The notes under the pieces are model-generated. The model made no database searches, had not been told where the DNA came from, and saw only the letters and a list, made by a program, of their open reading frames with translations. Source: Paecilomyces variotii (Eukaryota). Taken from it: a stretch of DNA of 64,000 nucleotides. Position 1 is the stretch's first letter. Every line of letters starts with the position of its first letter. The position numbers were made by a program, and so were the translations under genes. Location of the stretch: the NCBI GenBank assembly GCA_004022145.1, contig RCNU01000001.1; one strand, given 5' to 3'. Shown piece by piece: positions 19,430-48,017 of this stretch.

Positions 19430-19704
19430 GTTGGAGTGTCCTGAAAGATGCGATATATATAATCGGTTACCCACATGTTTAATTTATTTGTTTTATTACT
19501 CTTCGTGGTTATGATCACCAGCAGAATACATCCCTAACCACTTGCATACATTCGATTCTAGATACCACATTTACTACCTTTACCGTCTACCCCATTAGCT
19601 ATTCAAAGAACGCACGAAACAAATCCACCGTAATCAAACATCTTCATACCAAGCACCATATGTAGCTTCAACAAACACAATCCCGGACCGTTCTATCATC
19701 CAAT

Positions 19705-19776
19705 GGGGTCGTGGTTTAGTGGTATAATGCATCCTTAGCATGGATGAGGTCCGGGGTTCGATTCCCCGCGACTCCA
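19705..19776 (+). tRNA. tRNA-Ala(AGC)
   Basis: Acceptor GGGGTCG/CGACTCC, anticodon arm CATCC-TTAGCAT-GGATG, T-loop GTTCGATTC, downstream T-run. Confidence 0.97.
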
Positions 19777-20318
19777 TTACCTTTTTGCGCTTTCTCTGTT
19801 CATTCTAAACGGCGCAGAAATTTTTCCTTTTCTCCCTTTTTTTTTTTTTGGTGAAATGGCTTCAGTCCGGTCCATTGCGGGAGTGGTGTGGATCCGGCCG
19901 TAGTCCGGTTATGCCAAGTGATGGGGTTAAGGGCTACGGTCACACGTGATCTGTTATTTTCTCGCCTGCGGTTGAAAGATTGTTTCACGCATAGGTGTGC
20001 ATGGGCTGCGTGGAAGTAAAAGGTAGTCTAGTAAGTACTCTATGGTAGTAGTGGACTGAGGAGCCTTCTAGCTAGCAGATTTAATCATATAGTCTATATC
20101 TCTCCCAGAATTGCAAAACTCCCTGTTTCCGTAACAAGTAAATACCGGAACAGTTTTACCACCGCAAACTAATCACCAAAAAGAAAGCACTTGCTATAAT
20201 CGAGCGAGCCCTTTTGCCTGTCCGCCGCTAAGGAATATGTATATCTTCTTCAGCATCGAGAGCCATGCTCAAAAAATGAATGCGACAAGTATAGGTTTTT
20301 CAAAAAAGCAAAAAGTAA

Positions 20319-20390
20319 TGGAGTCGCGGGGAATCGAACCCCGGACCTCATCCATGCTAAGGATGCATTATACCACTAAACCACGACCCC
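20319..20390 (-). tRNA. tRNA-Ala(AGC), identical to 19705-19776
   Basis: Exact reverse complement of the first copy, with a T-run terminator on the minus strand. Confidence 0.97.
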
Positions 20391-20782
20391 ATTGGATGAT
20401 ATATTACGTCAGGTAGGAGTGATTTATCAAGAAAAGAAGGATTTCATATTGTCAGAAGACGCTAGTAATTTATTTTACGCATGGTATGGGATGCTGCTGT
20501 TTAGGAGGGTACGTTCTGGGTCTCTGTCTTGGGTCCGTGATATGTTTTTCCTATTGTACTGGATTCTTGTATAGCATTCATAACCGGGATCCTAGGGTTA
20601 ATGCGATACGTTGGTGTTTTACTGTGATGGGTCGAACGTTTAAACATAATTGGATCTTTGGAATGTATCTCATCTATGAGTGTTCTGATAATCCATAGCC
20701 CTGTTGTCTCCAAAAATGCCCATATTCCAACCAAACGCAAGATTAGACCAACCTAAAAGAACAAGAAAAAAGGTAAAGAACA

Positions 20783-25293: not shown

Positions 25294-26166
25294 GGGATCT
25301 GAAGCTAGGCATATAGTCAGTAAATACGCCGTTCTTGTTGGCTGTAAACAGTGATTGATTTACTTATTGCTCCGTTCTGACCATCATCGTCCTTCTGCTA
25401 GTACTTACATAGCACAACGGGCTAGACCAACATGTAAACACGAACCTTACATGCAAGCTAGATCCTTTGGGAACCGGATTTTTAGCTCGTCTCCAACAAG
25501 AACAATAATAACCATCCAAGGGTTTTGAGTTGCGACAAAGTTCCGGTCGTCCGGGTATGGCATCCCGCCTGTCTCGCGGCGGCGGTTGAGATACCCGATA
25601 CTTTTCTCGAACAGACTCCGACTAATTCTTTTGATAGGCTCAGCTCGTGTCCTTTGCAAGGCTAGGATTCCGATCGCCACTGGGGATACTCGGGCGTTCG
25701 TGTCGTTTAAGCCCCTTCCGTCGTGCGGGGCGGAACCAAGAGGAAATGGGCCAGCTAGCGGCGAGTAGAGCGATCTGCTACAGGGCAAACGTTGAAGCCA
25801 GAGGGTTGATGCCTTGATGGAGCTGTTCCCGCACATACCCGATGGACACTAGATAGAACAGGGAGAAGTTAGAAGTCGTAAAATCGGGACGTGAGGCTAA
25901 CCTACCCCAGACTTCCCCGGACTGCGAGAGACGCAAGCGGAGGAGAAGACGAGGCCAAACGCTCAGCTGAACTCCCCGCAACAAGCCCCCTCACCGCTCA
26001 CCATCCAGTTCATGTTCATGTTCATGTTCGAGTTCGAGTTCATCTGTTCATGCTGGGTAACTCACTCACTTGACTCCCGTGTCCCTGCCTGGTCGCGTGT
26101 GACATCGAGGATAACTACCAGTCATTTCTCAACAGAGGATAGATAATCTGCTCCTCGTCGTTGTCC

Positions 26167-29131
26167 ATGGCCCAACTGCCCCCGGCCGACCCCTGCGCGA
26201 GCCTCCAGGGGCAACAGATCCTCAGCATCAGGACTTCGCCCAAGGCGCAGTCCGGGAGGGCGGAATTACCACGTCGTCGACAGAATCGGAGCTGTGATCA
26301 GTGTCGCAAGGGCAAGAGAGCCTGCGACGCGGCCATCGTGGGGAAGACAGGTTCGCCCACCTCATCGTCGACATCCAGTGGTTCTCCTGACACCGGGGTC
26401 CCTGCTGCGGGCCCATGTTCGAATTGCAGGCGATGGAGGAAGGAGTGCACGTTCAAGTGGCTCCATTCAGTACAGACCAAGAGTTCGAAGCGGCGAAGGA
26501 AATCTGAAACCGCTCAGGACAGCGCAGAGTGCGAACCGATCGCAGCAGCGTTGAATGAGTCGAACCTACAGATTCCGGGCACCTACGTTGGTCCACCGGC
26601 CGATCCCACAGCAAACCACGAGAATCCTTCGCTATGGGAGCAACAAGATCCACTGACCGCGGCCCTGCGATGGCAGGACTCGTCGGACAGCTCAGATCTG
26701 TCCGGAAGTAGAGGCCCTGATTCCGTCGAAGATGACATGTCAGTAGTAGAGACAGACGTAATCGGCTTTGCTATCAGGCACGACGAACCGATGCAGCATG
26801 AACAGACGATGAGAGGCTATCAAGGTAAGCTTGTTGATCCACCACGTACCTTTGGTAAAGCAGCAACAATAGTGATAAAGCTGTTACCATATGCTAACAA
26901 TGTCATTATTAGATCTAAATAGGCCTCAATCCTACCCTCCCAATTACGTCTCTGAGGAAGGTGAACACCCGCGTCGTCATGCCTTGCAATCAGAGAGGCA
27001 TCCTTATCGGAAAAAGACATCGTCGCCGCCAAAGACGGTCAGCGAGCTGCTACACCAGTCAGGAAAACTGTCACAATCTTTCAGTCGTTCTGCAATGACC
27101 CAAAATCTTCTTCGAATCTATCGCGACAGCATGGAGAATGCCCTGTCTTGTTGGCTTATAGAGAGAACCTGTCCGTACAGCGGACCAGTCACTTTGAGCG
27201 GCAAGAGACCGGACGTTCCTCCGCCGTTTTCTATGAAGTCCGAATGGGGTCCGAATTGGTCGAATCGAATCTGCACACGAGTCTGCCGCCTGGACCGCGC
27301 TTACTCGATGATACGCGGGCGGAGTTTGACTTCTACGGAAGAGAAGGCAGCTTCTCGGGCGCTCCATACCTCCATTATGGCCTTTGCTACGCAGTGGACG
27401 CAGACAGGTCGCCCTATTGTGGAGGATGGCAGCGCCGATTCCTCAATATCTCCGAAGGGTATCCATCGATCAATCCAGGAATCGTGTTGGAACCAGGCAT
27501 ATAAAGCGCTGAATGATTCAGTCGGTATAGAATCATTTCGCGTGGTCTTTGCTCACATCATTTTCTCTCTCACTCTACGGCCGTTGAACGTGAAGCAACA
27601 TCTAGAGGCCATGAATGCGCGGCGCTGTATCAGCTGCCAACGGAGACGAAGTTCTGTTAACTTGTCATCCGGAGAACCACCGAGTGACTGTACTTGCGGT
27701 GTATCAGACTTTTCAGAGCTGTCGGAGATACTTGACTCTGACAAGGCCCCCCTCTTCCTGGAGACGGCAGTTCGGCAGATGTACACTTATCGACACAAAT
27801 TGGCAGGGGTCCAGCGCCGTGGCGCCCTAGCTGGTCAACATAGAAGCGGAGGAGAAAGTCCATCGACAATGGATCCTTTCGCACCATTCGCGCCTCCAGA
27901 ACGGAGAGCGAGCATCGGTGGACCTCCACAGCCGAGCTCACAAACACAAATGGTGTTAAGTGCTACCGATTACGAGACTTTCAACCTACTCTTTTGGCTG
28001 GGTATCATGTTCGACACCTTGTCCGCCGTCATGTATCAACGCCCCCCGGTCGTCTCGGATGAAGATAGCGATGTCACCACTGCAATACCTGAAGAGCGAG
28101 CTCAGTCCACAGCCATGGAGAATGAAATCGATCTGAACGGATGGAACATGCTTTCTGTGTACGCCGATGCCGGGAAGAAGGGAAAGGAGATATGGGGTGA
28201 TTTCTTTCTTGACAAGAGACCTGTCACACGCTGGAAGAATATCACCAACTGGCCTTGTTCTTACGAAGAGGCGGCCGAGATCCTGTCTGATGCTGCGCCA
28301 GTCAAAGTGCTGATCTACCGTCGCCTGACACGCTTGCAGACGTTGATCTATCGAGGTGCTCCTGCCGAGGAACTTGAGGAAGCAGTTCAGGAGTCACTTC
28401 GGGTATATCAGTACTGGAACCATACCTACGGGCGGTTCATGCTAGGCTGCGTCACGCATCACGAGAGCCTTCCACCTCGAGTGCAGTCATGGTACATTCT
28501 CCTCGCCGCCCATTGGCATCTCGCCCCCATCCTGATGGCCGATATCTTGGACGGGACAGACAGAGCTGGTATAGGCGTCGAATCAGAGCGAGAATCGAGG
28601 CGCGCCACGCACTTTTCCTCTGCCTTGCGAAAGGAAAATGCCTTTGCTGTCTCAGAACTGGCTCGCTGCTGCAGTCATGACCAAGCTTCGTCTTTCTCCA
28701 AGGCCGCCGAGTTCCACGATGCGGTTAATTCCCAGGCTCTCCTCACTGAGCCATGGACAGCCGTTCTTATCCGCTCTTTCGCTCGAGCAGGATATATCCT
28801 TCTAGACGGTGTCGCTGCTCCGCCCTCGGGTGAGGAACCCCCAAACATCTACCTTGCGCAGCCCGGCATGCTCGAGGAGTCCAGACGACGCTGCCAGATG
28901 TGCATCGATGCTCTACGTTGGATAGGCAGAAAGTCAGACATGGCGTTCCTTGCCGCCAGAGCGCTATCCGACAGTTATGAGGCGAGAATCAATGGCGCCC
29001 GACGAAGCACCACGTCTGCGGAGATCTCAGAGATCCCATTCCCGGAAGTCGAAGTTCCTGACTACCAAACACACGATGATTGTTCACGCGATGACATTCT
29101 ATATCCGCTGGTTGGATCTATTGCTGGGTAG
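26167..29131 (+). CDS. alcR: Zn(II)2Cys6 transcription factor, AlcR-like, 2 exons
   Basis: RRRQNRSCDQCRKGKRACDA, then an unusually long Cys3-Cys4 loop, then CSNCRRWRKECTFKWL, which is the AlcR-type cluster. C-terminal blocks IYRDSMENALSCWL, EWGPNWSNR, DAAPVKVL and LLTEPW. Intron about 26825-26922. Orthologue versus paralogue is unresolved. Confidence 0.85.
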
Positions 29132-29256
29132 GGTAGGGTAGTATAGTTATTTGCTAGCGGTCACCTTGTATCCAGCCGCCATTAATTACCCGTATATACA
29201 GTGTATCACAATACAGTGTATCACATGTACTTTCCTTTCGCACGTGGCGGTGGGTT

Positions 29257-29612
29257 GGTCGCGAGGTGGCGAGGCGGCGTCTCGCGAGGTGGCGAGGTTT
29301 TTGTTACCAGTAGATTACTAGTAAATTACTATTTTATATTAAAATTATATTAATATATACTAATAGGGAATAAAATCTAAAATTTTTAAATCTGGCGGGG
29401 TGGTAAGTACAGGTAAATCTTATCTCGCGGGGCGGTAAGATTGTAATTGCTGTATTTTATACTAAATATTATTAGTTTTACTAGTAAAGTTTAATTACTA
29501 TTAAAACAGCTTAGTTGTAAATTACCATTATACCGCCCCGCGAGACCGTGTAAATAACCGTTAGATCTGTATTAAAATTAAGCAAATACAGGCTATTAAT
29601 CTTGGCTGATCT
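29257..29612 (+). repeat. Left TIR of the MULE-like element
   Basis: Reverse complement of 37987-38342. Confidence 0.95.
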
Positions 29613-30174
29613 ACTAGTATATACTGGTAGATTTTAAAATCTACAGATACAAGAGACTAAGTATTATTAAAGGCAGAAGATAAAAGGGAGTTAGTAAGTA
29701 ATGTCTCCTAGAATATACTAGGTATTACTAGTTACTAACCATAATAACTAATTAGAAATATTTAAGATAAATTATAAACTTTTAAAGTTGTAATTATATA
29801 TATATATAATTATAATTTTAATTTAAATATTCTATTTTAATTTATTTTAATATAAACTAAATATTACTAATATAACTATTAACTAATATATTTATATAGC
29901 TCAATCATTTTTTAGAGATATTATAATTTACTGAAATATAGTAGTTATTACTATAATCTAGCAGTCAGGACCAGTAATTACTATAGTAAGCTCACGGGAA
30001 ATGGTCGGCCCGATAGGAGAGTTCCTATACTAAGCTTAGTAAGCTAAGGGTTTATACAAACAATACAAATATTTTAGCGAGTAAAAAGTTTAAACACACT
30101 AAAAAAACTTCTACAACCTTTTTATCTTTAGATATTACTTTTCTTTAGCTATTAATAGTCTTATTAAGACTATT

Positions 30175-33100
30175 ATGGCTTTAGATCTATCTCAAAGACT
30201 CCTAGGAGTTATAGAATCTAATAATATTTCTGACTGGAATCAAAAAGATGATTATTCAGTTTATTCTACTGAAACTCCTAATATCTTAGAGATATTAGAT
30301 GAATTCGAGCGGGAGCCTCAGGATGAAGACTCTGATAACGAAGATCCTTTGAATACGGTATGTTAATTACTATTATATACTAATCTTTACTGTGATAATG
30401 TTTATATTACTAATACTATATTATAATATTAGATTGACAACCAACCTACTACTAGTATATCTAGTAGGGAATCTAGTAACCAATTACTAGATCCAGAGGA
30501 GTTACATCCAATCTCTACCAATAGTTCATTGGAGATATTACCTTTTTCTAGATCAACCAGTGTTGAACTAGGCACGAAACCGCTTTTTGGTATTTTCAGT
30601 CAAGCTAAATACCTCCAATATTCTCAGACAATACCAGAATACCCTAGTACTCATCCTGAAGGTGTTGCTTATTGTGTGAACGTCAGTAACCTGACGCAAT
30701 CCACAATCGATAACTATCATAGTCAGGTAAGTATTAATCTATATTGGTAGCGGTTATAAGAGTACTAATATATATTAGGTTCAATATGGTAAAGGTTCAA
30801 GAACAACCAGCAGCAGTAAGACGAAAGTAACTGCACATATACCATTTCTTAATAATACTGAATGTATTGTTAAGAAATGGCAATGTTCTGGTGTTCGTTG
30901 TTGTCCACATGTACCAGAACATATTCAGACTCTCAATCATACCGAAGCTTCTGAAAGTATTTGGTTACAACTAGTACTCAATCGACATGACCAAGAAAAC
31001 ATTACCAATAACCGAACGGATCAGCAACGACTAGAAGAAACCAGCAACCGACTCTATGATTCTGGGATTTACCAACGAGACCATAGATGTCCTGATTCCT
31101 GCCGTAATGGAGGCTTGAAACTTGGATATGATCACACAAAGGTAAGTACTAATTCCAATTAGTATAATCTAATATATTAGTAGTATAATTACTACCAGGA
31201 CTTAATACTAATAATAAATCTTATTAGGATCTATACTGGCTTAGGTGTAACCAATGGTTCCCATCTGATAGTGCACAGCATTATTTCCAGTATCTTCCAA
31301 GAACACTAAACTTTGACCACACTCACTTGCGTGAGTTATGCAACTCGCAAGCCAGTAATTCTAATCCTACCAGTACCACTGGTTATACTGGTATCTCTAC
31401 CAATACTACTTCAACAACAAACCCACGAATCTGCAGTTTAGTTGAATCAGTACGAGCTCGCAGTAAATATTGTGGTAAGGAAAATTTTTAATCCCTACTA
31501 AAACTAACTGGATATAACTGCTAATACTGGGTACTATTATATTACTAGCTTATCATGGCGTATCTAGTCCGATTCAAACAGTTCCATGTGATGTTCAATT
31601 TTTGTATATCACACCTAAAGACTATCAGCAAGTACCATTTGTACTGTTTGTTAGTTTTGGAACCCATCGACATCCACCACCTCCTACAGCAAAGGTACCC
31701 CGTGATATCTGGAATGATATTACTAAAATTATTCAAAAAACCGATACTCGGGGGCTTACTGTTGGTATGTTTTAAGATATATTAGTAACCCCTAATAATT
31801 ACTAATAAAATACACTATATACTAACAACTATTAATACTAGGTCGATTCATACGGAATAGTAATCTCCAACAATACCTAAAAGAGAATAATGCAACTAGG
31901 CTTTCTCAGATCCACCCAGCTTTGAACAATCAGGACATTATACGCCAGATGATATACAAAGAAAAGCTATTAAGGAATCCATTTGGCGAGAGCTATGACG
32001 GTAAGTATAAGCTATAATTATTAATATATACTGGTAGATACTAATATATCCTATAATACAGCGGTTCTCTTCCAGTTCCTAATGAAAACCCAAAATTCAC
32101 AAAGTCATGAATACATTCGTGATATGTACAATGATGGGGTAAATATTCGTATCATTTGCTTTTCTCAAGAACAATCAGTTGCTTTCAGTAAACAACGTTC
32201 TTTTCAAGTCGATATGACTTACAAACGCACTGGTAATGGCTTCAACGAAGTTGTTTTTGCAACTATGCCAGAAACAGTTGGTAACGGTATGTACTACTAT
32301 ATACTAATTGTTACTAAGTATACTTAATACTGACTAAGCCTATTTACTACTTTAGCGGTTGTCCTTGCTCGAGTTTTTGTGAATAAAGACTCAACAACAA
32401 TGTACACAAAGCTATTCGAAAAGATTTTCCCTCTTTTAGCCGCTACTAGTAATAGTAGCAGCCACCGGTTCAACTGGTGGCACATTGATGGCTCCGGGAT
32501 ACAAGCAGTAATCACCGATATGTGTCACAAACAAGCTGCTGGTAAGTATTATAATAATCGGTTTTAGCAATATATATACTAGTATAGTACTAATATTTAC
32601 TAGGCCTTGGTCGATACTTATATAGTATCGATAATACCCGATCTTGGCAGGAGCATATAATGCATACTACCATATTCTGTTTGATTCACTATTTCCGAGG
32701 TGTACATCGGAAATATCGGAGCTTTGATGCATACCAGCTTATGCGTCGGTTAGTTTCAGAAACAACTAAAAGCAACTGTGATCGAATCTTACAGACTTTA
32801 CGCAACCACAACAACCGGGATATCCGAACATGGGTTAAACATAAGGAGATTCCTTGGATCCTATCTGGTCTAAACGCCAATTACTCTCGGATGCCTTCAA
32901 TTACGTTTAATACCTACCAGAGGAATTCAAATGCAGTTGAAGCGATACACCATCGGGACCAAGTCTTGACTGGTACTGGAATTTCGTTACTTAGTGCTAT
33001 CATCCAGTAGGTAATATAACCTATTGGATAAAACTATTACTAACTGGGTCTATAGAGCACAAGATATCGATAACCGAGCTGTTCATGGAATTAACCAGTA

Positions 33101-33736
33101 TCTTGAAACTGGTGTAAGACCTGCTTCAAATTTGTCTACACCTCTAAGGCGTATTCAGAATCGACCAGTACAAGCTACACCGTCAATATCAACTGGTAAG
33201 TAATAAAACCTATTATATGGTTAATTATACGGAGACTATTATTATATATAAAATACTAATAAAGTACAGTTACATCTGGTATTGCTAGCCCAATTGATCT
33301 TACAGATAGCCCAGACCCTCCAGTGGCAACTCAGGCTATTCAATCTATATTGGATAGATTCAACTCTAGTGGTGTTACTGGTAAAAGAAAGCGAACTCGG
33401 CAGGCCATGACTACAGACCCTATTACGTCGCCTACACCTAACCAGAAAAGATCCAGAAAATCAGCAAATAAGAACCTAATACTGACAGCAACTGGAACTA
33501 CTGGACCTACTGATATACCTAGCTTTGAGAGGTTACCCTCTTTAGAGACTAGTAGTCAGTCAAGAAATACTAGGGTACCTAGTAACATTATGGCTTACAC
33601 CGATGAACCAGCTGCTACTGGTAACACCAATACAACTAACGACAATGATCTGGCATTTAATAGAGAGCTTACCGCTCTCCAAGATAATATCAATCGCCAG
33701 ATATTAGAACTTCGAAAGAAGTATAATAAGATGTGA
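30175..33736 (+). CDS. MULE-type DDE transposase, 11 exons, about 960 aa, reading frame intact
   Basis: Exons approx. 30175-30357, 30433-30726, 30779-31141, 31228-31474, 31549-31764, 31842-32000, 32062-32287, 32356-32541, 32604-33006, 33056-33196 and 33270-33736 splice GT..AG in frame without stops. Motifs GTHRHPPP, FQVDMTYK (D1), VITDMCHKQAAGL (D2), FCLIH (CxxH) and NSNAVEAIH (E). Confidence 0.85.
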
Positions 33737-33955
33737 GCAAGGATAATAGGTTTCGGTTTCAAGTTTTGTCATTTAGTATTACCAGAAGATGTTAGTGAGT
33801 TAAATATTATTAGTTAATACTAATATATTAGTCTATTAAAAAGAGATATATTATAAAATCAGTTTATTAAACTAGAACTACTAGTATAAACTATACTAGA
33901 TTACTGGTTACTAGAAAACCAGATAGTATTAAATTCTAAGTCTGAATTGCAACTA

Positions 33956-36070
33956 CTGGACCTAATTATCTAGTATATAGTCCTACCTAATATATAATTT
34001 TTCTTAAGGAATTTAGAATTTTAAAATATAAATATCTTTATAATTAGTAGATTAAATATTTAAATATTTAAATAAGATATTTTAAAACCCTTAAAAATAT
34101 AATATATATAATTTTTATAAAAAATATTAATATTAAAATAATTAAATCTATTATTATATATAATAATATTTAAAAATTATTTATTTATTTTAATCTTTAA
34201 TAAATTAATTATTTTTATTTATTTTATTAATTAAATATATTTAAATAATTTTTAAACTTAGTTATTTAATATATAATTTTATTTAAACTTTTACTAAAAT
34301 TTAAAAAATTTAAAATATAAATATTATTAATAAATAATTAAATTATTAAATATTTAAATAAAATAAAATTATTAGTTTTATCTTTACAATAAGCTTTATA
34401 TAAAAATAGAATTATTTATTAGATATAATAAGATTTTATATTTAACTTTCATATATCTTTTTATAATTCAAATCAAAAAATATTAATTTAATTAGATAAT
34501 ATCTGAATGAACCGACATTCTTACTAATTTTTAAATATAGAGATATTATTAATTTTTTAAAGATATTTTATAATATTATAAATAATTCAGATTAAAAATA
34601 AATTTAAAAATTAATTTTTATAATTATTTTGAAAGATATTATAATTATTATTAAAAATTAATAAATATATAGAATTTTAAATAATAAAAAAAAATTCTAA
34701 ATCTCTCTTATATAATTAAAATAAATAAATAAATAAAAATATTAAAAGTAAGCTTAAAATTAAATTAAAATTAATTTTTTAAATAATAATATTTAAACTT
34801 AAATAAAGAAAAATAATATAAATTTTAACTTTTAAATCTATATTATAATTTATAAATTTCTTTATAAATAAAACTTAAAGAAATTTTTAATTTAAATTAA
34901 AAGGAATATAATATATTAAAGAAGTATTTTTAATATATTAAATCTATTAAATCTATTTATAAAATAGTTTTAATAATTTAAATTTAAATATTATATATTT
35001 TAAGTTTATTCTAATATTTTTTATTATTTATATTTAAATATATTATATTATTAGAAAAATTTATTTATTTTTTTTAAAAAATTTTAAAATATTAAATTAA
35101 ACCTTTATTATAATAAAGTTATTTAAGAATTAATTAAAATAAATTAATTATTTAATAATAAATTATATAGATTAAATCTTTAATTTATTATTAATTTAAA
35201 AATATATAACTTTTAATTTAATTATTAAAAAAAATAGAATTTATTTTTAAATTTAAAAAATTTTTAATTATTCTTAATAATAGACTTTATAAAAAATTAT
35301 TAATTTAAGAATTAATAAAATATTTAATATATTTTAAAACTATTATTAATTTTTTAATATTATTAATTTAAAAGTTATTTTATATATTAATTTAAATATT
35401 ATACTTTTAATATAATATAATATATATTTTTATTATTTAATTATATAATATATAAAATATTATAATAATATTTAAATTATTTTAAAAACTATAATAAATT
35501 ATAATATTAATATTTAAATTTTAAAATATTAATAATATTATAAAATATAATATTATTATATTTTAAAGTTTAAAGATAAAAAAAGAAGTTTTTCTTATAA
35601 TTATTTTATATTTTTTCTTATATATAAATTATTTTATAAGTTAAAAATATTAAAAATTACTTTAAATTTAAGCTAAAAAATAAATTAAAAATTTCATTAA
35701 AAAACTTAATTAAATAATAAAAGAATTAAGAATTAAATAATTTTAAAATAATATTAAATAAGTTTATTAAAATTATAAAAAGATTTATAAATATTTTATT
35801 TATTTAAAAATTATAAAAATATTAATTTATTAAAAATTAAAATAAAAAAATTTAAATATTATTAAATATAATAATAGATTTAATTATTTTAATATTATTA
35901 TTATTCTATAAAAATTATATATATTATTATTTTTAGGGATTTAGAATACTCTACTTAAATATCTAATTATTTACTCTACTAATTATTAAGATATTTATAT
36001 TTTAAAGTTTTTAATTCCTTAGGGAAAATTATATATTAGGTAGGACTATACACCAGATAATTAGGTCCAG
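33956..36070. mobile_element. RIP-degenerate TIR transposon relic (Tc1/mariner-type by TA duplication), nested in the MULE
   Basis: TA|CTGGACCTAATTATC...GATAATTAGGTCCAG|TA with imperfect TIRs of about 200 bp. The interior is almost pure A/T with no ORF; length 2115 bp. Confidence 0.85.
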
Positions 36071-36238
36071 TAATAATGGAGATATTTTAAGCAGTGTACC
36101 AGTAAATTTACTAGCTACCAAAAGGGACCAGTATTAATCTACTACGGTCTACCTAACTGCCTTTACAAGAAACCAGCACCAACCAGTACCAACCAGCACC
36201 AAGCAGCACCAACCCATTGCCCAGTTGCGATTAGTTGC

Positions 36239-37364
36239 TCACGCCTTCGCCTTTCCTTTGCCTTTGCCCTTAGCACCGCTGGCCCCACCAGTAGTACCGG
36301 TAGCACTGCTCTCATTGGTGGTGGTGGGATTGTTTCGGGTCTTACGAGGTGGGTAGTAGCTATTGGTAAGGTTAGTAACAACCAGTATATCTTAGAATAT
36401 CAATACTCACTGGGAACAACTGTGATTGATCCTATCACAGGCCTTGTGCTTCTTGTTTGCACATGATTTGCAAGGACTAGTTGTATTAGTAAATACCAAT
36501 ACCAACCAAGGAAATAACATATACTAGTAGAACTGTTACATACCCGATGGTCGTCTCAGGGGATTTTGATCTAGCGGAGTCATCAGAGGAGTCCTCCCCT
36601 TCAGAATCGGTTTCTGCCACTTCGAGTTCACTACTACCATTAGATACTAGTATCACAGAGTATATTCTAGTAACTGCACTTACTGATCGCCCTTGCCCTT
36701 TCCCCCATCTAAAACCCTCAGGCCCTTAAACAGATCGATACGTTTGGATCCCTATTAGTACTACCAGTTAGTATCAGTAGAGAATCAACCGAATGAGTAT
36801 ACTCACGATATGAGATGTCTTGATGTGTTTGCGAATAATGGAACCCGAACCCCAAGTCGACTGGTTCGCTCTAGTAGGACCAGTCAGTACCAATACTAAC
36901 TGGGCAATTATACAACCAATTAATACATACGGCTCGTAGACGCAATATGGACAGCGTTTCGCACACTTCGGTATCTCCTAGTAGCTATTAGTACTCTCAA
37001 ATATAACCAATAAGGATTAGACGTAAATACTTACGATCTCGCCTTTGTACGGCCACTTCTTCTTCTCATGATGGGCGCAATCGCAAATTTTTTTCTTCCT
37101 GTAACTAATCAGAATAGTACTACCAGTAAATACCAATATGTAATAGACGTACACGATTTTGCTGCTCTTGGACGGGGTAGCCTCCTGCGCGTTGGGATTA
37201 CTGGTTAAACCAGTAGTATCAGTGGTATGACTGCCGCCAGTAGGGCCGGTGGGAGCAGTATAACCAGTCGTATCAGTGGGATTGGTGGTAACGGTGGTAA
37301 CGCCAGTGGTATCGTCACTGGCATTGGTAGTAGTATTACCGGTCGGACTGGTAGGGGTCGCCAT
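36239..37364 (-). CDS. Transposon-borne Cys/His-rich (zinc-finger-like) protein, 8 exons, about 243 aa
   Basis: Seven short GT..AG introns join in frame: Thr/Pro-rich N-terminus; KKKICDCAHHEKKK; CAKRCPYC-x16-HIKTSH; acidic stretch; CKSCANKKHKACDRINHSCSH; basic tail GKGKGKAKA* (TGA 36241-36239). An alternative ATG lies at 37409. Confidence 0.65.
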
Positions 37365-37810
37365 CGTACTAGTTGGTAGACTGTACCTACCTAATCTACC
37401 AATCGCCATCTGTTAGTAATTAGTACTTACCAAACATAACCAATATAACCGGAAACGCATAAAAAGTGGTAAGAAATGGGAGTAACCAGTATTGGCTTTT
37501 GAGCCTAATCATTGGTCGCGGTCGCAACTGCCAAGTCTGACTATCGCTTTCCCGTTCCCTATAAGCTCAAACTAGGGGATATAAGGTTTAAAAGAGACAG
37601 AATTAGAATAATAATAAACTCAGTGTATCCAGACACCTTTATTAGGGATTAAAAACAAGATTAACTAGGACTTACCTGTCTGAAGATGGTTGACGAAGGG
37701 AAGAAATTAAAAGGGATTAATCAAATGTGATTTTTTTTTCATATGGTGTTTGTGGGCTGAGTGAATAACATACTAGCCTAATTTGGAAATATAAACATCT
37801 ACCAGAGTGA

Positions 37811-37931
37811 ATCTGATATTGCCTAGTCTACTAGTCGGATATAGCCTACGAGTATACCAGTTGTATATAGCCTGCCACCAGTATACCAGTCGGATATGGC
37901 CCACTACTAAGGTATAAGTCGGATATTGCCT
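37811..37931. repeat. Five imperfect copies of an approximately 15 bp motif AGTCGGATAT(A/T/G)GCCT, subterminal in the MULE
   Basis: Copies start near 37811, 37833, 37859, 37888 and 37917. Confidence 0.7.
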
Positions 37932-37986
37932 GGCATACTAGCCGCGACTACCTTGTACCAGTACGTTTTAGTAGACTAGTTTACCA

Positions 37987-38342
37987 AGATCAGTTAAAAT
38001 TAATAGCCTGTATTTGCTTAATTTTAATACAGATCTAACGGTTATTTACACGGTCTCGCGGGGCGGTATAATGGTAATTTACAACTAAGCTGTTTTAATA
38101 GTAATTAAACTTTACTAGTAAAACTAATAATATTTAGTATAAAATACAGCAATTACAATCTTACCACCCCGCGAGATAAGATTTACCTGTACTTACCACC
38201 CCGCGAGATTTAAAAATTTTAGATTTTATTCTCTATTAGTATATATTAGTATAATTTTAATATAAAATAATAATTTACCAGTAACCTACTGGTAACAAAA
38301 ACCTCGCGACCTCGCGAGACGCCACCTCGCGACCTCGCGACC
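37987..38342 (-). repeat. Right TIR of the MULE-like element
   Basis: Reverse complement of 29257-29612. Confidence 0.95.
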
Positions 38343-38726
38343 CATATAACCCGCACGTGGTGCGATTTTTTTTTTCTTTGTCTTCCTAAACATCCTTGTT
38401 TTGTTCTTCTAGCCCCGTAATCAACGAGACCATATCGATGAAATATATACGTAGAATCGACCATATAAAATCCCTCATCCCCTCCCCCCCAATCTCTACA
38501 ATAGAGTTAGCACACACACACACGCAATATAATAATAATTCACCATATTCTACATCAACATTCCATCTTACAAAGTAAATAAATACATACATACATACCC
38601 ACTAAGTAATTTTTCCCCTTCCCATATCAAAAACAAGACATACTCGTACTCGTACTCGAAAAAAAAGCAAGGACCAATCTAAAAGAAAAAGAAAAAAATA
38701 ATAATAATAATCGGGCCAAAAAAAAA

Positions 38727-38798
38727 TGGAGTTGCGGGGAATCGAACCCCGGACCTCATCCATGCTAAGGATGCATTATACCACTAAACCACAACCCC
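38727..38798 (-). tRNA. tRNA-Ala(AGC), acceptor variant GGGGTTG/CAACTCC
   Basis: Same body as the copies at 19.7 and 20.3 kb with one compensatory base-pair change; T-run terminator. Confidence 0.97.
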
Positions 38799-39801
38799 AT
38801 TTGATGAAAGAAGGGTCGGGAAATATGTTACATATACCAAGATTATTGGCTGTTTAGTTCAGTTCTCAGTTAGACGATGGTAGTTACTGTAACTATGCTT
38901 GTAATTTTATCGAGAGTAGATTTAAATTAAGGTGTGTAGCCGGTAGGTAAGTGCATATTCTTGATGACTAGGTAGCTCATTATTCCAATCCTACTCTTTG
39001 AGCAGCATACTTAGGTGGTGGCATTAACTTGAAAGTGTTAATTGCTTTGGTACTCCGTATTTCATTTGTCGTAAGAAGATGGATAGTTAGAAAGTGCAAG
39101 CTATTGTTATTATTATTGAGTTACCATCTACTATTTACGATATAATGCTCAAGATTAAGATGATAAGATGATTACCATGTGGTATTTAAAAGAAAAGTAG
39201 CTAACAATCTCCATGCCGAAGCACTCTGGTATTTCTAAGTACGTTGGTGCAATATAGACGCCTGTGAACTATTTCCCTTTTCGCCAATTTGAACAGAACA
39301 CCGCACCCAGATACTGTGGAAAAAACAAGCAGTAATCCCAGAGAAAGCTCTCTGTTCGAGCTGGGTATAATAAAAAACAAATGCTTTTGATCACGTAATT
39401 CAGGTCATTAAAATGTGTATGTTCAATGCGATTTGCAAATTCCAAGGGGAGGAAAAAAGAATCCCTCTCGAACAGCCCATCATGACGCGTTCGAAGGGTC
39501 ATGAATGATCGAACAGTGAGACGTCGCGGACGTCGAGACTAGGTCTGGCGAATTAAGGAGTAGACGGTAGTCAGAACGGGAAGCTGATGGACCGTGGTTG
39601 ATGTCAGTTCCAACGGCATCCGCGGTTCTGGCGTCCCATGGATGATAAACGCGCAAGCAACTTTAATTGTCCCAAAGCACACAGGCGAACCAGGCCCCCG
39701 GTCTTAATGACTAATAGCAGATTCATGACTTCGTAAGAGTTCCGGTGCAGTCCAAACAGGGGATGCAGATGGAACTATTGCAAACCGAAAGATGAGCGGT
39801 T

Positions 39802-41454
39802 TCACCGTACAACACCCTGTGCGACATCAGACGAGTCGCCTTCGTCTTCGGGATGAGCACGACCTCTGGTCTCAATTGGTGGTCCGGCAACGAGGTCGTC
39901 GGTGGTCAGTCGTGCCCTCTCCTGAGGACGACTCTCCATGCTTTCCATTGATGGTCGGGAGGACCTGGTGGAGTCACCATCAAGTCGCAAGTGCTCCATC
40001 CTCTCGAGGTCCTGGTAGTCAGGGAGCGGTAGTGGAGAGCCTCGGTAATCTTCCATGGTGCTGTTGACGTCCAAAATCGCGTATCCGGGAGGGCTGGCAG
40101 GTACATCGTTGTAGACAGGTGGCATCTCCTCGTCCCAGCTGATGCCCAGTCCACTCCGCTCGGTGACGTGCAGGTGGAACTGCATCCGGAGAACACGGGC
40201 AGCTCCGGTGGGCGTGATAAGTTTGGTGTTGCGGTTGGGGCAGAACTCCTCGGCGACGATAAGTTCGATCACCAGATTGTGCTTCACCTCTAGTCCACCG
40301 GGGGCGTCCATATCACACACTGGGTTGCAGCCAGGTTTGATGTTCGCATCGAATTCCATCGTAATCTCACCTCCAGCGGTGTCGAAGTCCGTTTTCCATC
40401 CACTCTTCTCCTCATTGTGTCCGATGATTCTGGTTTCCTGGTGCAGGACTCCCTTTCCTTCCCCGCCGACCTTGTGAGCATGTTTCGCGCAAGCAGTGGA
40501 GATGATCTTCTGGTGCTCTTCAATGCGCCACATCATCTTTCGTAGGCGCCATCTCGTCTGGGTCTCCTCGCCCTTGTCGACCACTCCGCTCAGAGTCATT
40601 TGAACCGGGAAGGTTCCAATGGGATGGACGACGGAAGGAAGCACCACCCGACCGGTGAGATTAGTGGGAGGGAAGATGCGGATGGAGGACTTGTCATTTC
40701 CGGGCAGAATGGCGCGACGGATCGTCAACGGTGTCTGGAAGGTAAACTCCTCTCCAGTCGAGGTCAGGGCCCTGGCCGAGAGCTTATATTCTACCCCTCC
40801 CAGTGTGCCATTGGCAGAAGCGGGGAGATGGCCGGGGAACAAGTAACTGAAAGGATAGTCATGTTTACCGCGCTGCAGCTTGGCGGGTTCTGTCAAGAAA
40901 TCCCACTCACACAGCGGTTCTGTGCGGGTGGAACAGTTGGGGCAGTCCCTCGAGACTGGCTTCTTCGTGCTGATACTGGATGTCAAGCGCATCTCAAGCT
41001 TCTGGAGAGTGACCGCTCCAGGGATCTCCGCCACATCGATCAGGAGACGGCCAGACATCAGAGCGCCGCTCGAGTTTGCTGGACTGCCATAGAAGACGAG
41101 AGGCGGGGATTCGAAGATGACGTCCAGCTGGGCCGGAGGCTGATGAGACTCGTCTCTGGCTGCTGGACGCTCCTTTGACCGCGACGAACGCCCCAGGCTG
41201 CGGCGCTTCTCCTTGCTTTCCTTGTGGGGGTGGATGAGAGATTCGAGAGATTCCATGGAGAACGACAGACGACGCTCAGGGATTAGAGCCTGCACGGCAT
41301 GAGCATTCGCGGGTTGCTTCCGCGACACCGTTTGGTGGGAGATTTCGTTGACTGACGACGATGAAGAGTTGTTGGAGTGTGTGGAAGCGGTAGCAGAATT
41401 GTGTAGAGAAGAGGCGACGGGCCGGACGAAATTAGGGAGGAGACGGCCGGGCAT
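39802..41454 (-). CDS. LDB19: Alpha-arrestin, Ldb19/Art1-like Rsp5 adaptor
   Basis: 550 aa ORF. FESPPLVFYG..SGALMSG, YPFSYLFPGHLP, RIFPPT, WRLRKMMWRIEE, PTGAARVLRMQF and ERSGLGISWDEEMPPVY; PY-type motifs PPVY, PPGY and LPDY. Confidence 0.85.
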   Translation of the reverse strand: MPGRLLPNFVRPVASSLHNSATASTHSNNSSSSSVNEISHQTVSRKQPANAHAVQALIPERRLSFSMESLESLIHPHKESKEKRRSLGRSSRSKERPAARDESHQPPAQLDVIFESPPLVFYGSPANSSGALMSGRLLIDVAEIPGAVTLQKLEMRLTSSISTKKPVSRDCPNCSTRTEPLCEWDFLTEPAKLQRGKHDYPFSYLFPGHLPASANGTLGGVEYKLSARALTSTGEEFTFQTPLTIRRAILPGNDKSSIRIFPPTNLTGRVVLPSVVHPIGTFPVQMTLSGVVDKGEETQTRWRLRKMMWRIEEHQKIISTACAKHAHKVGGEGKGVLHQETRIIGHNEEKSGWKTDFDTAGGEITMEFDANIKPGCNPVCDMDAPGGLEVKHNLVIELIVAEEFCPNRNTKLITPTGAARVLRMQFHLHVTERSGLGISWDEEMPPVYNDVPASPPGYAILDVNSTMEDYRGSPLPLPDYQDLERMEHLRLDGDSTRSSRPSMESMESRPQERARLTTDDLVAGPPIETRGRAHPEDEGDSSDVAQGVVR

Positions 41455-44400
41455 GGTGGGCGAGCTTCACGCCTTGGGTGAAGAAGTTAAGGATGTAGAC
41501 TTAAGATCCCCCTCCCCCAAGAGATAAGACAATCAGGCTATTCCCTTGTATAAAAAAAAAATTCAGATAGCCAATGGCGAGTGGTGAATGGCGCGGACAG
41601 TGGCTTTGTCCGAGTGACGTTTGCGGAAAGAGACGCTCTCTGCGGATGCGACGTAGAAAGTGCAATTGAAGTATAAAATGCGGATTCGGCAGCTATAGTC
41701 TTCGAGTTGATGAGATGAGTGAGAAGAAAGACGTGGCACGACGGTTCACATATACATCGTCCTCCGCGCGAGATCCTGCAGCAATGACGGCAGCGCAGGC
41801 GCAATCTAGACTGGGGAAGTCGTGATCCAAGTCCCTGTGGTGAGATGTGCGTGAGATGGAAGCGGGTTATTCTTAGGCAGTATGCGCGCAGCAAACAGGG
41901 TATCAAAGATGAGAAGCGAGTACGCAAAGTCGTAGTGTCAAAAAGTCTCAAGTAGAAGTAATAATAATAATACTACCAAGATCGTATTCTACGACTCCCT
42001 GGTGGGCGCCAGGGAGGTTTTGTAGTCTATGTCTCGAACAAAACATTTGCCAGGCGGCAAGGGGCCACCGAGGACCCAGCAGCCAACGTCTTTCCCAGAT
42101 CCATCTAAGCTTCGACCAAGGAACGAGTTTTTTCTCCGTCGAGACTTTTTCTTCTTTTTTTTTTCAGACCAGGTGGTTCATTCCAGGGCATTCGGAGCGT
42201 ACCTTGACGGCCTAGCCACCGATGCTCGCGGACAAGTGGGGTCTCGTTTCGAATCGACAGGTCTCGACACCGTCTCGTTTCTTACCGGATACCATACCAT
42301 ACCATCATCATACAGCCAGCGGGATGACACCATCTGGGTTTGGAGGAGTACTATGATTAGATACCTACCTAACCTAGGTATGACCCTGACTCATTTTGCC
42401 CTCATCAACATGAAACAGAAAAGGACCAAAAGAAAGCTTCATCTTATGAAAGTCTAGAACTCCTAGTAATAATTCGTCAGATGTGTATACTGCTCTTGAG
42501 ACGTACTCATGGTCCAAGCAAAAGCAAGGGTAGTCTAGATAGAAATCACCCTGCAGTGTGCACACTATGGTAACTGTTGTTGCAGGGTTAACTACTACTA
42601 ACTACTCCACTGCATCAGGTCATGCTTCCCATCCAACTCTGACATGCGGGGTAGATACGGCTGTACTGTACTTGCGACGGACATATGATCGATCGCCTTG
42701 ATCAAGAAGAATAGCATACTAACGACCGTGCATTGTTGATGACTGGATGGATGCAGTACATAGATGCCGTCGCCGGGGAATCGGAGACGAGTCCCTGACT
42801 CCCTGATCACCTCCGGGCGAGAGTTTAGGGTACGTGGCCTGTCACGTGCTGAACCAAGTAGATAGGATGGCAATCTGTGAGATCGAGATGAGCAATGGTG
42901 TTGACATTCCGCGCAATGCCAGGATCATCTCGTGCTATGCGCTTGACGTGTCGCAACGGTCACCCGCCATCGCCGTCATCGGCTCATCACGTGGCGCCAT
43001 TGTCAGGCTGTTGACCGCCCAGGAACTTGTAGCCGGACTGGCACTGCCGCTTTGCCGGACCCAGCATGCACCATGGGCAATACCGATTGTGACGATCACA
43101 ATACGGTAACAATACGGCTGCGAACAAAGAAGGCGCAGCCCTATTTGGCGATCCCGCGGGCGCCAGGATGCTCCACCAGACACGCCGGGCTGCCATTGGC
43201 TCCCCTGCAGACCCAGGGAAAATTCTGAGGATTCTGTTCTCCTCGCTGCTTCCTGTTTGGGCTCCTCGTCGCTTAACCCCGCACTGTCTGCTCTGCCGGG
43301 CCCGCGGGGATTATTATTATTATTGCGCAGGAGAGCAGCTCGGCTATCCTCATATTATTATACTGTAGTATGTTATTGCATTTGGCACATGAACTCGACC
43401 CCCTTTCTGCACAGGGGTCACTACAATTTTCTCGAGAATCTAGGCTGTCTCAATATCTTTTAGTTTGGCCACTTGGTGCTCTGTGCGCTCGTTTCTGGGG
43501 GATGATGCAGCGTGATGACAGCTGGGATGGCAGACTAATTACCTAACAGCTTTGTTCTCATTGCAAGTCCGGGGTCAACAAGCTTAATGCGCTACCTTTC
43601 TCCCCTGCCACGTCGTCCATAGAGATCTCGCCATCGGGAGCGTGGCCGTGTTTCGACGCCAGAAGTCAGGGTCTGGTCTCTACTCTAAGCTTACTACTCT
43701 ATTACTACGTACTACTACTAATCATACATGATGATACATACTCCTCCCCGAAGCGCATCACGCTCGATCCAACGGGTACCTTGCGAACGTGCTTCGCGCG
43801 ATGGAGACGGATTCGTTGAAGCTCTCCCGGTGCAATCATCGGGAAGATCGCACCATTCATCCCTGGCCCGGTACCCTCGTGGTCTGATGGAGAGTAGGTA
43901 TGATCCTACCTCCTTGTTAGGGAGATTAAGATAATTTCGGACTCGCTCCCGGCCCATGACTCCCGGATGCCGGGCCGTGGATATTATTGGGTCACGACTT
44001 GCGGTGTGTTCTACCCATAACATACATTTTTGCTCTGATCTATACTGAAACATCTCCCTCTGCAACAGCGTATCTCAGTTATCAATCTAAACGACGAGTA
44101 TAGCCGGCAATAATAAAATACGCCGTCTCCACCGTCGTCCATGGTTCCCGGTCTGGATGCCGCACTTCAATCCACAGCAGGAGACCGCTGGTGTCGGCTG
44201 CTCTACGGCGCTGTAGTAGATCTGTCGTCCAGCGGGTAGATTTTTTTTGACTAGGTATCTATCTCCATACAATGCCCTATCTCGAATGGTGCCCGCATCA
44301 TGGCCGTCGTTGCGAAGCCAGATCCACCTACACACGCCCGAATACTACGTTGCGCCAGCAGTTGCCATGGAACAAAGCAATCCATCTTTTCGTATTCTAT

Positions 44401-45730
44401 CCACCGGCAAAACCATGTGAGGAATTATTGTTATTTAGGTCCAGTACGGTGCTTTATTATTGTGGGAAAATTATGGCTGAAAAGCACACCATCCTACAAC
44501 CCGGGATTCTGCACCCGAATCGCCTGATTTGGCCCTTTCATGTCGGCTTTAGTCAACCGTCACCACATCGTTAGGGCGTACTGTTCTCGAGGTTGGTCTT
44601 ATGTAACGCCCCGTTGCAGTAACTAATTAAAATAATACCCTTCTGGGTCGCACGGTTGTCCCTATTTCTGTCAATTCGTGACTCATTTTGCGCTCTATAA
44701 TAATAATAAAAAAAAATTAATCAAACCCTCAAATATGCTATGTCGCTCTTACACCGCACCGCCTGGAAAAGTCAGCCATACCCACTTGTCTATCGGGCGA
44801 GACTCGACACCGAGTGGACCGCATCGCAGCCCCTGGAGGCATTTTTTCCGCTTCAGGAATTCTCACGCTGCTTGCTCGGCATCCAGAAGTTCCTCGCGAT
44901 CTCTATTTTGAGCACCAGGCGACGGCGCGTCCTACTATTGGCTCCGTAGGCCGCCGGCGTCTGTGTAGAATATTTTTGGCTGGCGGGCCCCTCGATTAAT
45001 TCTTCCATCGGCGGGTCTTGCCTTTGCTAAATAAATTCTGCCGTGTCTTCGGAGGTCTCCGTCGGCCGCTGCTAACCGCTGCCAGATCTACTAACTATCT
45101 AGTAGTAGTAGGAAGTCCAGAGCATTATTATTGTTGCCATCTCTTCTTCGAACTAAGCGCTGGCGCATGGCTTCACACAATATCATTAACTAATTAACCA
45201 ATTGTTAGTTTGCTGGAGATCTCATCCTTTAATTTACCTGCTACATTACCCATTTGCAGCGGGTTCATTGCTATAGGATATGTAAATACCTACCTGACCA
45301 GGTTCCCAGGCTCTGGGCCAAGGTCGGGCAAGCAACTTGCGAGCTTGGAGAGGTCCAATATTCCGTTTGCTTTTCATGCCATTTGGGATATAGCGACTGC
45401 TCTGTGTGGATATTCTCGACGTAATAATAATAATCTAAATGGTATTAGCTGCTTAAGAAAGTCAGCCTTTACTTCCCCGCGGAAATAATACTATCGCTCA
45501 GAAATATATATTATATATCGCACGGGAAGGTAACAACAATATAACCCATAAGAGGGCGTAGGCGTTGCGCTATCAATCATTTAAACCCAATATGCAAGAT
45601 ATAATACTATATTAACATCTCTATTATTATTGCTATCTATAGATATGCGTCTTTATCTGTCTTACCGAAAAAGGTGACTCTCTAGAGATTCCCCTCTTAA
45701 ATCGCATTGAGGAGCAGACTATCATCCAAT

Positions 45731-45802
45731 GGGGTTGTGGTTTAGTGGTATAATGCATCCTTAGCATGGATGAGGTCCGGGGTTCGATTCCCCGCAACTC
45801 CA
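45731..45802 (+). tRNA. tRNA-Ala(AGC), identical to 38727-38798
   Basis: GGGGTTG...CAACTCCA followed by a T-run. Confidence 0.97.
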
Positions 45803-46625
45803 TTTTTTGCCGATTTAATATTTTTTGTCTCCACGAAGAGGAGGGATGTGTCTAGTTTATATATACTGCTACCTACTGACATTGTGCAGTATTTTCATTT
45901 TTCCTCTTCGTTGTTGGTTGTATATCTATCATTGTTGATGTCGGAGGAAGTTAACGAGTGACCTTGGTAGAAAAGTATCGCGTGAGCCATGATGGAGCTC
46001 CTCTATTCAGGTTAAAGAAAGTATACGGATAGTAATATGTTTTCTGGTAAATGCCGTTTAAGTCTCAGATATAATCATCTCGTCCTGGGGTATAACCCTG
46101 TAGTTACTATGTAGTATTACTTCAACTACTTATAGTCTACATAGTACATACAAACATACCAACTCTACCCCTCCCCCTTTTCCTCCGGGTGTTTTATGCC
46201 ACGTTACATGTTCGTGATTGGATCTTCAATTGACTTGATTTCTCATCGGAGAAACCAAAAGATTTCATGATACCTCTCGCATAATTCTTTCCTGCGTCAA
46301 CAGCAAAGAACGGGGATCATTAATTGGTGCTATGTTATGGTGATGTCGGCTGCGCATCGTCCGTTTCGCCGCATCGTGACCCATCCCGACTCTCCGCAGC
46401 TCCGCTCCATTTTATTATCATCGCTTCGATAACGGCGACACCCTCTCTTTGCTTTCTCCTCTTGCGACGCGACGCGACGCGCAATTGGGTGCCGTCGCTT
46501 GACAATCCCAATAATTAAACTATAACTATCCTATCCAATCCAATCGCATATGATCTTCAATTGACGACGCAACCACCACCCTCACCTCCGTGTCGAGTCG
46601 AACTCGACATTTTGCCTCTCCCGCA

Positions 46626-47993: not shown

Positions 47994-48017
47994 GATGGAT
48001 GGATGGATGGATGGATG
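47994..48017. repeat. (GATG)n microsatellite
   Basis: About six tandem GATG/GGAT units. Confidence 0.85.

Follow-up and report, generated by a model that had tools for sequence, protein, structure and literature searches.

The maize transposon MuDR is laid out as two convergent genes, mudrA and mudrB. Both genes are named for MuDR in passages of PMC6446971, which also give the general traits of Mutator-like elements (MULEs) as a target site duplication (TSD) of 8-11 bp and terminal inverted repeats (TIRs) of 14-500 bp, and which describe MULEs with two open reading frames (ORFs) in the Ascomycota, namely Mutyl, whose second ORF, mutB, is given a DNA-binding role, and the Hop subgroup, with one or two ORFs. 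Further MULE traits named in parts of PMC5499845 are a (C/D)xxH motif, a conserved tryptophan (W), long TSDs, which are shared with hAT elements, and a hairpin formed on the flanking DNA. It is established knowledge that IS256 is the prokaryotic counterpart of the eukaryotic Mutator transposases (compare PMC3942029), and fungal MULEs have been assigned through the Pfam models PF10551 and PF00872 (passages of PMC5751038). Here we describe an element found in a stretch of 64,000 nucleotides of contig RCNU01000001.1 of Paecilomyces variotii (assembly GCA_004022145.1); this whole stretch is called the window, and all positions refer to it. The element is very probably a class II (cut-and-paste) transposon from a divergent lineage of the Mutator/IS256 superfamily. 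We place it there because the best fold matches of its transposase are to the IS256-family enzyme ISCth4, and because it has a 9-bp TSD, long TIRs and the CxxH and W motifs.

The element is structurally complete and its limits are set by the flanking TSD copies, CGCACGTGG, which are perfect, 9 bp long and the longest word common to both 30-nt flanks; when the flanks were shuffled, 47 of 20000 shuffles shared a word of 9 nt or more. Each copy lies exactly 9 nt outward from the complementary TIR arms, and from the positions of the TSD at both flanks it therefore follows that the element spans 29248-38351, that is 9104 bp. The duplicated target contains the palindrome CACGTG.

The TIR arms are the one outstanding inverted pair reported by a repeat finder in 28500-39200, with 96% complementarity (96.3% by blastn). 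Where the arms differ, transitions predominate, and three G/C transversions fall inside a repeated TCGCGAGGT(G/C)GCGAGG motif. The octamer TCGCGRGG has 16 matches in the window against 3.0 expected, and 11 of these 16 are inside the two TIRs. The GC content per kb is 5-43% inside the element and 46-57% in the flanks. Long TIRs and a 9-bp flanking direct repeat had been proposed in a first-pass annotation of this DNA; the former proved to be 356 nt long and 96% complementary and the latter a perfect copy of CGCACGTGG on both sides. Next to the inner side of the right TIR there is also a tandem repeat of a 29-nt unit (37825-37901), for which the left side has no counterpart.

The first gene of the element, encoding the transposase, appears in the ORF track only as fragments because the stop-to-stop ORFs do not exceed 157 aa, which is the length of the longest one on the plus strand of the region. 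Pfam searches with 16 single ORF fragments gave no meaningful match. Once spliced (Table 1), the frame is without an internal stop, and the ten introns are all GT-AG, 48-86 nt long and 16-31% in GC, with CTAAT/CTAAC-type motifs upstream of most acceptors. For introns 7 and 10 the canonical donors GTATGT (32287) and GTAAGT (33196) were preferred over the non-canonical ones of a length-maximising search, and the resulting model of 960 aa outscored the alternative against all four homologues compared. A MAFFT alignment with 11 homologues shows conservation and no gaps at junctions 2-9, as in QAVITDMCHKQAAG joined to LGRYL, while junctions 1 and 10 fall in unconserved regions and have the splice signals as their sole support. 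Moreover, a single high-scoring segment pair of about 700-790 residues spans junctions 2-9, and the spliced protein aligns with full-length family members over residues ~113-850. The earlier claim of an 11-exon transposase in one frame of about 960 aa, visible as fragments only in the ORF track, was thus borne out by splicing and by the conservation of junctions 2-9.

Both genes of the element are already in GenBank as hypothetical proteins. The transposase is found there as 'hypothetical protein DTO280E4_2001 [Paecilomyces variotii]' (840 aa, here P0001), which is 100% identical over exon 9. This separate annotation shares the junctions of the 11-exon model and is equal to the 960-aa model minus four in-frame segments (30457-30573, 30788-30973, 33554-33568 and 33572-33613), so that P0001 is about 120 aa too short through segments spliced out. 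The second of these segments is a Cys-rich part of exon 3 that is conserved in homologues, and the model of the first-pass annotation is therefore better than the deposited one. To judge from the alignment, the deposited transposase model splices out this conserved segment wrongly.

With exon 9 as query, 126 proteins, each representing a cluster at 50% identity, were matched at E<=0.001, the best match being 46% identical. One relative with a name is a Penicillium maclennaniae protein; a word-index protein search with the family alignment found only this protein and P0001 among 7999 candidates, and no distant relatives labelled by Pfam. The near-invariant residues of the family are, in P0001 numbering, D437, D516, C549, H552, R555, W600, K604 and E636, of which D437, D516, C549, H552, W600 and E636 are D538, D617, C650, H653, W701 and E737 in the 960-aa model. 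In alignments of 25 and 41 sequences the D, D, CxxH, W and E are invariant or at least 90% conserved. The D..D..CxxH..E signature that had been read from the letters (D538, D617, C650xxH653, E737) is therefore both present and family-conserved.

Upstream of the core the family also keeps a C...C, beside the C.V.F and G.H.HPPPP of exon 5, and the exon 5 motif is probably a zinc-binding DNA-binding module placed ahead of the catalytic core. Its pattern resembles a C..C..HxH zinc finger of the WRKY/FAR1 type, the kind with which MULEs bind DNA.

An AlphaFold2 model of P0001, built on the 25-sequence alignment, has a mean predicted local distance difference test score (pLDDT) of 70.8, with residues 310-680 mostly at 84-98. 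According to DSSP, this model has a strand at 433-439 that carries D437, strands at 448-454 and 463-470, a helix at 475-492 and a strand at 512-515 followed by D516; then come a helix at 519-532, a strand at 546-548 followed by the CxxH, an all-helical part at 550-627 containing W600 and a helix at 633-646 containing E636. The predicted fold is that of an RNase H-like core with a helical insertion ahead of the Glu helix. Foldseek against the PDB returned ISCth4 (6xgx, 6xg8, 6xgw) for all of the top five matches, with E from 1.3e-5 to 5.8e-4 and probability 1.00, followed by Hermes, a hAT transposase (E 6.5e-3, probability 0.47), and then by retroviral integrases. A second model was made of the 347-aa core of P0016, a relative 26% identical to P0001, on an alignment of 41 sequences (pLDDT 86.8, predicted template modelling score 0.78). 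Here too ISCth4 took all of the top five places (probability 1.00, E from 4.0e-5 to 1.1e-3), with Hermes next (1.9e-2). The RNase H-like DDE fold with an insertion, which had been named beforehand as the expected outcome of structure prediction, was found in both models, and the kinship of the catalytic domain to IS256-family transposases is seen in these two Foldseek searches at fold level only.

Gene 2 of the element lies on the opposite strand and reads towards the transposase gene. The two starts are nearly symmetric, the transposase ATG being 563 nt and the gene 2 ATG 578 nt inside the inner TIR edges. All six introns proposed for gene 2 are GT-AG, and its protein is Thr/Gly-rich, with two Cys/His clusters and a Lys/Gly tail. 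Neither a Pfam family at E<=10 nor an ESM Atlas neighbour scoring at least 0.9 was found for it. When 65 residues of its exon 1 were used as query, the match was 'hypothetical protein DTO166G4_184 [Paecilomyces variotii]' (242 aa, here P0128). This model has the same exons, but starts later, contains an additional intron, loses one residue through an acceptor shifted by 3 nt and is changed at two residues. This match indicates that the element, or a near-identical copy, is present in at least a second strain and that the gene was predicted independently. A convergent layout, with each gene starting inside its own end, is therefore found as gene models, P0128 included. The first-pass annotation had been right on a second convergent gene starting near the opposite TIR, as a gene model with a nearly identical counterpart in P0128; of the MuDR-like two-gene architecture that it also proposed, the convergent geometry stood and nothing beyond the geometry was confirmed.

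The coding sequence (CDS) of gene 2 has 50% GC, and 52% GC at third codon positions (GC3). The corresponding values are 40% and 31% for the transposase, and 53% and 55% for a neighbouring host ORF. The contrast in GC3 between gene 2 and the transposase is a hint that the two halves of the element may have come from different sources. Gene 2 may be a true accessory gene, captured host-like DNA (a Pack-MULE-like passenger) or a prediction artefact. Downstream of its stop, at 36171-36214, the 10-nt unit AACCAGCACC is repeated 4.4 times.

Between the two genes we found the relic of another element, with 7.1% GC overall and 5.3% in its core. Its borders, ...CAAC TA CTGGACC...GGTCCAG TA ATAA..., are compatible with a TA duplication, and it resembles a TA-duplicating transposon, possibly Tc1/mariner or pogo-like. 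The relic lies 218 bp past the transposase stop and 167 bp past the gene 2 stop, and therefore leaves both genes uninterrupted. Exhaustive repeat-induced point mutation (RIP) of a once multi-copy element would fit its extreme A+T content. Without it the host element measures 9104 - 2119 = 6985 bp, in agreement with the about 7.0 kb estimated earlier.

Table 1. Coordinates of the features of the element in the window (nucleotide positions)
Feature	Position	Strand	Remarks
Left TSD copy, CGCACGTGG	29239..29247	.	Read directly; identical to 38352-38360
Left terminal 9 nt	29248..29256	+	Not complementary to right terminal 9 nt (38343-38351)
Left TIR	29257..29612	+	356 nt; TCGCGRGG x4
Transposase gene	30175..33736	+	11 exons, 960 aa; splice search from ATG 30175, homologue alignment
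Transposase exons 1-6	30175-30357, 30433-30726, 30779-31141, 31228-31474, 31549-31764, 31842-32000	+	
Transposase exons 7-11	32062-32286, 32356-32541, 32604-33006, 33056-33195, 33270-33736	+	
Cys-rich segment of exon 3 (CxGxxxC)	30788..30973	+	Deleted in P0001; aligned and conserved in 6 full-length homologues
Exon 5, C.V.F ... G.H.HPPPP motif	31549..31764	+	Kept in 10/10 aligned family members
Catalytic core	32211..32941	+	D538 32211-32213, D617 32517-32519, C650/H653 32678-32689, W701 32831-32833, E737 32939-32941
Nested relic of another element	33954..36072	.	2119 bp; 169-nt inverted ends, 88% complementary
Gene 2	36239..37409	-	7 exons, 276 aa; ATG 37409, TGA 36241-36239; hand-checked canonical splice sites
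Gene 2 exons	37409-37035, 36977-36931, 36870-36807, 36751-36684, 36633-36544, 36476-36411, 36359-36239 (including stop)	-	
Subterminal tandem repeat	37825..37901	.	29-nt unit x 2.8; a little inward of right TIR
Right TIR	37987..38342	-	356 nt; TCGCGRGG x7
Right TSD copy, CGCACGTGG	38352..38360	.	Read directly

The traits by which Mutator elements are known are found in this element: the D/D/E triad together with (C/D)xxH and W, a TSD within 8-11 bp and TIRs within 14-500 bp. The sole exception is recognition by the Pfam models PF10551 and PF00872, and this heads a series of observations that weigh against the placement. P0001 was without a match to the Pfam models MULE (PF10551) and Transposase_mut (PF00872) at E<=10, as were 26 long relatives at E<=0.01 and 100 additional ones at E<=0.001, which gives 0 profile matches for the 127 family proteins (27 at E<=0.01 and 100 at E<=0.001); MULE (PF10551) came up in only one of 25 members, at E=0.1. 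A scan of 25 members with NCBIfam matched no IS256 model, and a 25-member profile run against the PDB sequences gave low-complexity noise only (E>=0.35). Both fold models are predictions, and the template modelling scores (TM-scores) to ISCth4 are modest, at 0.33-0.41, so that the relationship is a clan-level and not a close one. At the extreme ends of the element the 9 terminal nt mismatch at 6 of 9 positions and are thus non-complementary, and no pieces of the element were found elsewhere in the 64-kb window, where it is a single copy. In one protein search gene 2 matched only the copy of the other strain and no relatives from other species, and its Atlas recognition score is low (2016), a value that is neutral on the gene being real.

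The lack of Pfam recognition in the family, together with the weak TM-scores and the position of Hermes as runner-up in both fold searches, would also suit another reading, namely that the transposase represents a separate, unnamed superfamily in the hAT/Mutator/Transib/RAG-like group, whose likeness to IS256 amounts to a shared RNase H core with a helical insertion. CxxH and W are shared within that group, and the structures of eukaryotic MULE, Kolobok and Zisupton transposases, which would be the competitors of ISCth4, are not among the matches listed. However, in both of the independent models the E-value of ISCth4 is better than that of Hermes by 2-3 orders of magnitude, and the family-carrying Atlas neighbours all belong to MULE or its clan. 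Closest in the Atlas are clusters of unnamed proteins from Basidiomycota and clusters called 'MULE transposase domain-containing protein'; most of these nearest clusters are of Basidiomycota and Mucoromycota origin. The 10 best family-carrying matches (10/10) are in the MULE family or clan, although the tool itself warns that this also happens with a third of shuffled proteins. Moreover, a 9-bp TSD combined with TIRs of several hundred nt is the Mutator pattern (as given in passages of PMC6446971). We regard a separate superfamily as quite improbable, and the proposal of a divergent fungal MULE lineage was upheld by the IS256-like DDE fold, the CxxH and W, the 9-bp TSD, the long TIRs and the 0 of 127 Pfam matches.

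Two named groups were also considered as homes for the transposase. The hAT elements have 8-bp TSDs, short TIRs and a C-terminal dimerisation domain; membership is ruled out by the 9-bp TSD, the 356-nt TIR, the absence of any Pfam domain at E<=10 and the position of Hermes as second-best only. The transposase and CxC domains of the KDZ (Kyakuja-Dileera-Zisupton) group have Pfam models, and this group is ruled out as well, since neither P0001 nor the 25 members of the A1 alignment have a Pfam family at E<=10.

If the element is taken as a member of Mutator/IS256, its working can be sketched as follows. The 960-aa product of the 11-exon gene would be a DDE transposase, whose N-terminal Cys/His region, as the candidate DNA-binding part, may recognise the TCGCGRGG-type repeats packed in the 356-nt TIRs. 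Cleavage of the element ends would be the task of the RNase H-like core (D538, D617, E737), with its CxxH and the conserved Trp of the all-helical insertion, and by analogy with Muta1 (parts of PMC5499845) this cleavage may proceed through a hairpin on the flanking DNA and involve the conserved W. The ends would then be joined to a target site opened by staggered cuts 9 bp apart, the repair of which would give the observed duplication. Gene 2 would encode a small low-complexity Cys/His protein and be either an accessory factor or passenger DNA, and the almost purely A+T relic has landed in the spacer between the genes, touching neither.

Whether such an element is still mobile is a separate question, and we hold its present-day activity to be rather doubtful. 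The open 960-codon frame, the complete catalytic residues, the perfect TSD, the 96% TIR identity and a CDS without RIP signature speak for mobility; the non-complementary terminal 9 nt, the 2.1-kb foreign insert, the single copy in the window and a RIP-prone host speak against it. These latter points are also those of a reading in which the element is an immobile, fixed and recently dead MULE, with an ORF that is open by chance or recency and a gene 2 that is captured, fortuitous or an ab initio artefact. The two ends do not agree in their terminal 9 nt, the foreign relic sits inside, and RIP, shown experimentally in P. variotii (in passages of PMC6300479), would disable any second copy. The GC and GC3 of gene 2 (50% and 52%), which has no family, are like those of the host ORF and unlike those of the transposase. 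Nevertheless, the frame of 960 codons over 11 exons has all its catalytic residues intact, the perfect TSD and the TIR identity are signs of a copy that is young or has been maintained, the nested relic lies exactly in the intergenic spacer, and the introns of gene 2 are GT-AG in six of six cases in a gene that was predicted independently as P0128. We consider a dead MULE a serious possibility, without giving it the better half of our confidence.

Decay could be carried further, to the reading that the low GC and fragmented ORFs are those of a RIP-degraded pseudogene and the introns an over-fitted path through its stops. RIP-like values of TpA/ApT do occur, confined to non-coding parts (1.45-1.49 in the TIRs and 1.61 in the introns), and a length-maximising splice search will always yield some path. 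The indices of the transposase CDS are, however, neutral (TpA/ApT 0.99; (CpA+TpG)/(ApC+GpT) 1.05) and so carry no RIP signature. The introns, 10 of 10, are GT-AG and 48-86 nt long, most with CTAAT/CTAAC-type motifs; the independent annotation uses the same junctions; and junctions 2-9 are ungapped and conserved in up to 11 homologues, with one segment pair of ~700-790 residues running across them. Since junctions 2-9 are conserved, this alternative is rejected, and the neutral CDS indices also count in making it effectively refuted and hardly credible.

A bolder reading is that the element is an active autonomous founder of a Pfam-invisible fungal Mutator/IS256-like clade, that it came by horizontal transfer and that gene 2 is a zinc-binding accessory factor. 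The transfer is suggested because there are 10 introns in 3.6 kb and because GC3 is 31%, compared to 55% in the host. We find this reading unlikely. If it were true, the clade would be widespread in fungi, with at least 126 clusters at 50% identity, and uncatalogued; the donor would be an intron-rich, AT-rich lineage and the recipient an intron-poor, GC-richer and RIP-proficient Eurotiales genome; and gene 2 would be required for transposition, as a functional parallel of mudrB or mutB.

The element stands in ordinary host surroundings, between the 3' ends of two genes, one for a Zn2Cys6 regulator upstream (26143-29131, plus strand), whose stop is 116 bp from the element, and one for an LDB19/arrestin-like protein downstream (39802-41466, minus strand). 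A tRNA-Ala(AGC) gene lies 366 bp past the right TSD, and an Rfam scan of 28500-39500 found only this flanking tRNA and no match within the element. The window holds four tRNA-Ala(AGC) genes in its 64 kb, at 19704-19777 (+), 20318-20391 (-), 38726-38799 (-) and 45730-45803 (+). Other dips in GC, against a level of about 0.5, are seen at 62001-63000 (0.36), 45001-46000 (0.42) and 48001-49000 (0.42), and these might be other small AT-rich or repeat-derived patches.

With respect to novelty, the element is a well-preserved full-length example of a known transposon type and reveals no new mechanism, and a transposon specialist would not be surprised by it. No description of the element in P. variotii was found among the titles and abstracts of papers listed in literature searches, a scope that excludes the Repbase and Dfam catalogues, and passages of PMC13004909 and PMC6300479 do not mention it. 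The novelty is smaller than first claimed, given that two-ORF MULEs of Ascomycota are in print (passages of PMC6446971) and that both genes had already been deposited. The lineage is nevertheless one that Pfam-based fungal surveys of the kind described in passages of PMC5751038 would miss, and it is not small, with 126 representative clusters from one exon. A full-length copy with its ends, its TSD and an 11-exon model can serve as an annotation reference for this lineage and corrects a deposited gene model. The element is moreover a test case for an intact DNA transposon persisting under active RIP, and a candidate for a transposition assay or a tagging tool in a genetically tractable mould.

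Compared with the known systems, the element is tied to the IS256 family through ISCth4, with which its transposase shares, in predicted models, the RNase H-like DDE core and the helical insertion. ISCth4 itself comes from a bacterial insertion sequence, measures about 400 aa, is described as acting by copy-out/paste-in and is 9-13% identical to the fungal protein; the latter is 960 aa long and has an extended N-terminal Cys/His region as well as a disordered tail. Hermes, of the hAT group, has in common with it the CxxH, the W and the helical insertion domain, but its fold E-values are 2-3 orders of magnitude weaker than those of ISCth4. Like the element, MuDR of maize has two genes reading inward, one from each end, and long TIRs (~0.2-0.4 kb); unlike MuDR, the element has a transposase in which no sequence-level similarity to the MULE domain was detected.

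The fungal MULEs described in passages of PMC6446971 (Hop of Fusarium, Mutyl of Yarrowia and the Hop 'sub-group Fungi') are likewise cut-and-paste DDE elements, and the TSD and TIRs of the element are within their published range. They have one or two ORFs and Cys/His motifs upstream of the catalytic core, as the element does. The differences are a transposase that PF10551 and PF00872 do not see, ten introns, a gene 2 without detectable family, and TIRs of 356 nt compared to the 22-99 bp which passages of the same source give for Mutyl and the Ascomycota subgroup. Finally, Muta1 of Aedes aegypti, an active MULE studied in vitro (parts of PMC5499845), shares with the element the DDE triad, the conserved W and a long TSD. 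It is an animal element of the foldback type, with subterminal repeats, and makes its double-strand break through a hairpin on the flanking DNA (in the same parts of PMC5499845), which is why it was taken as the mechanistic template here.

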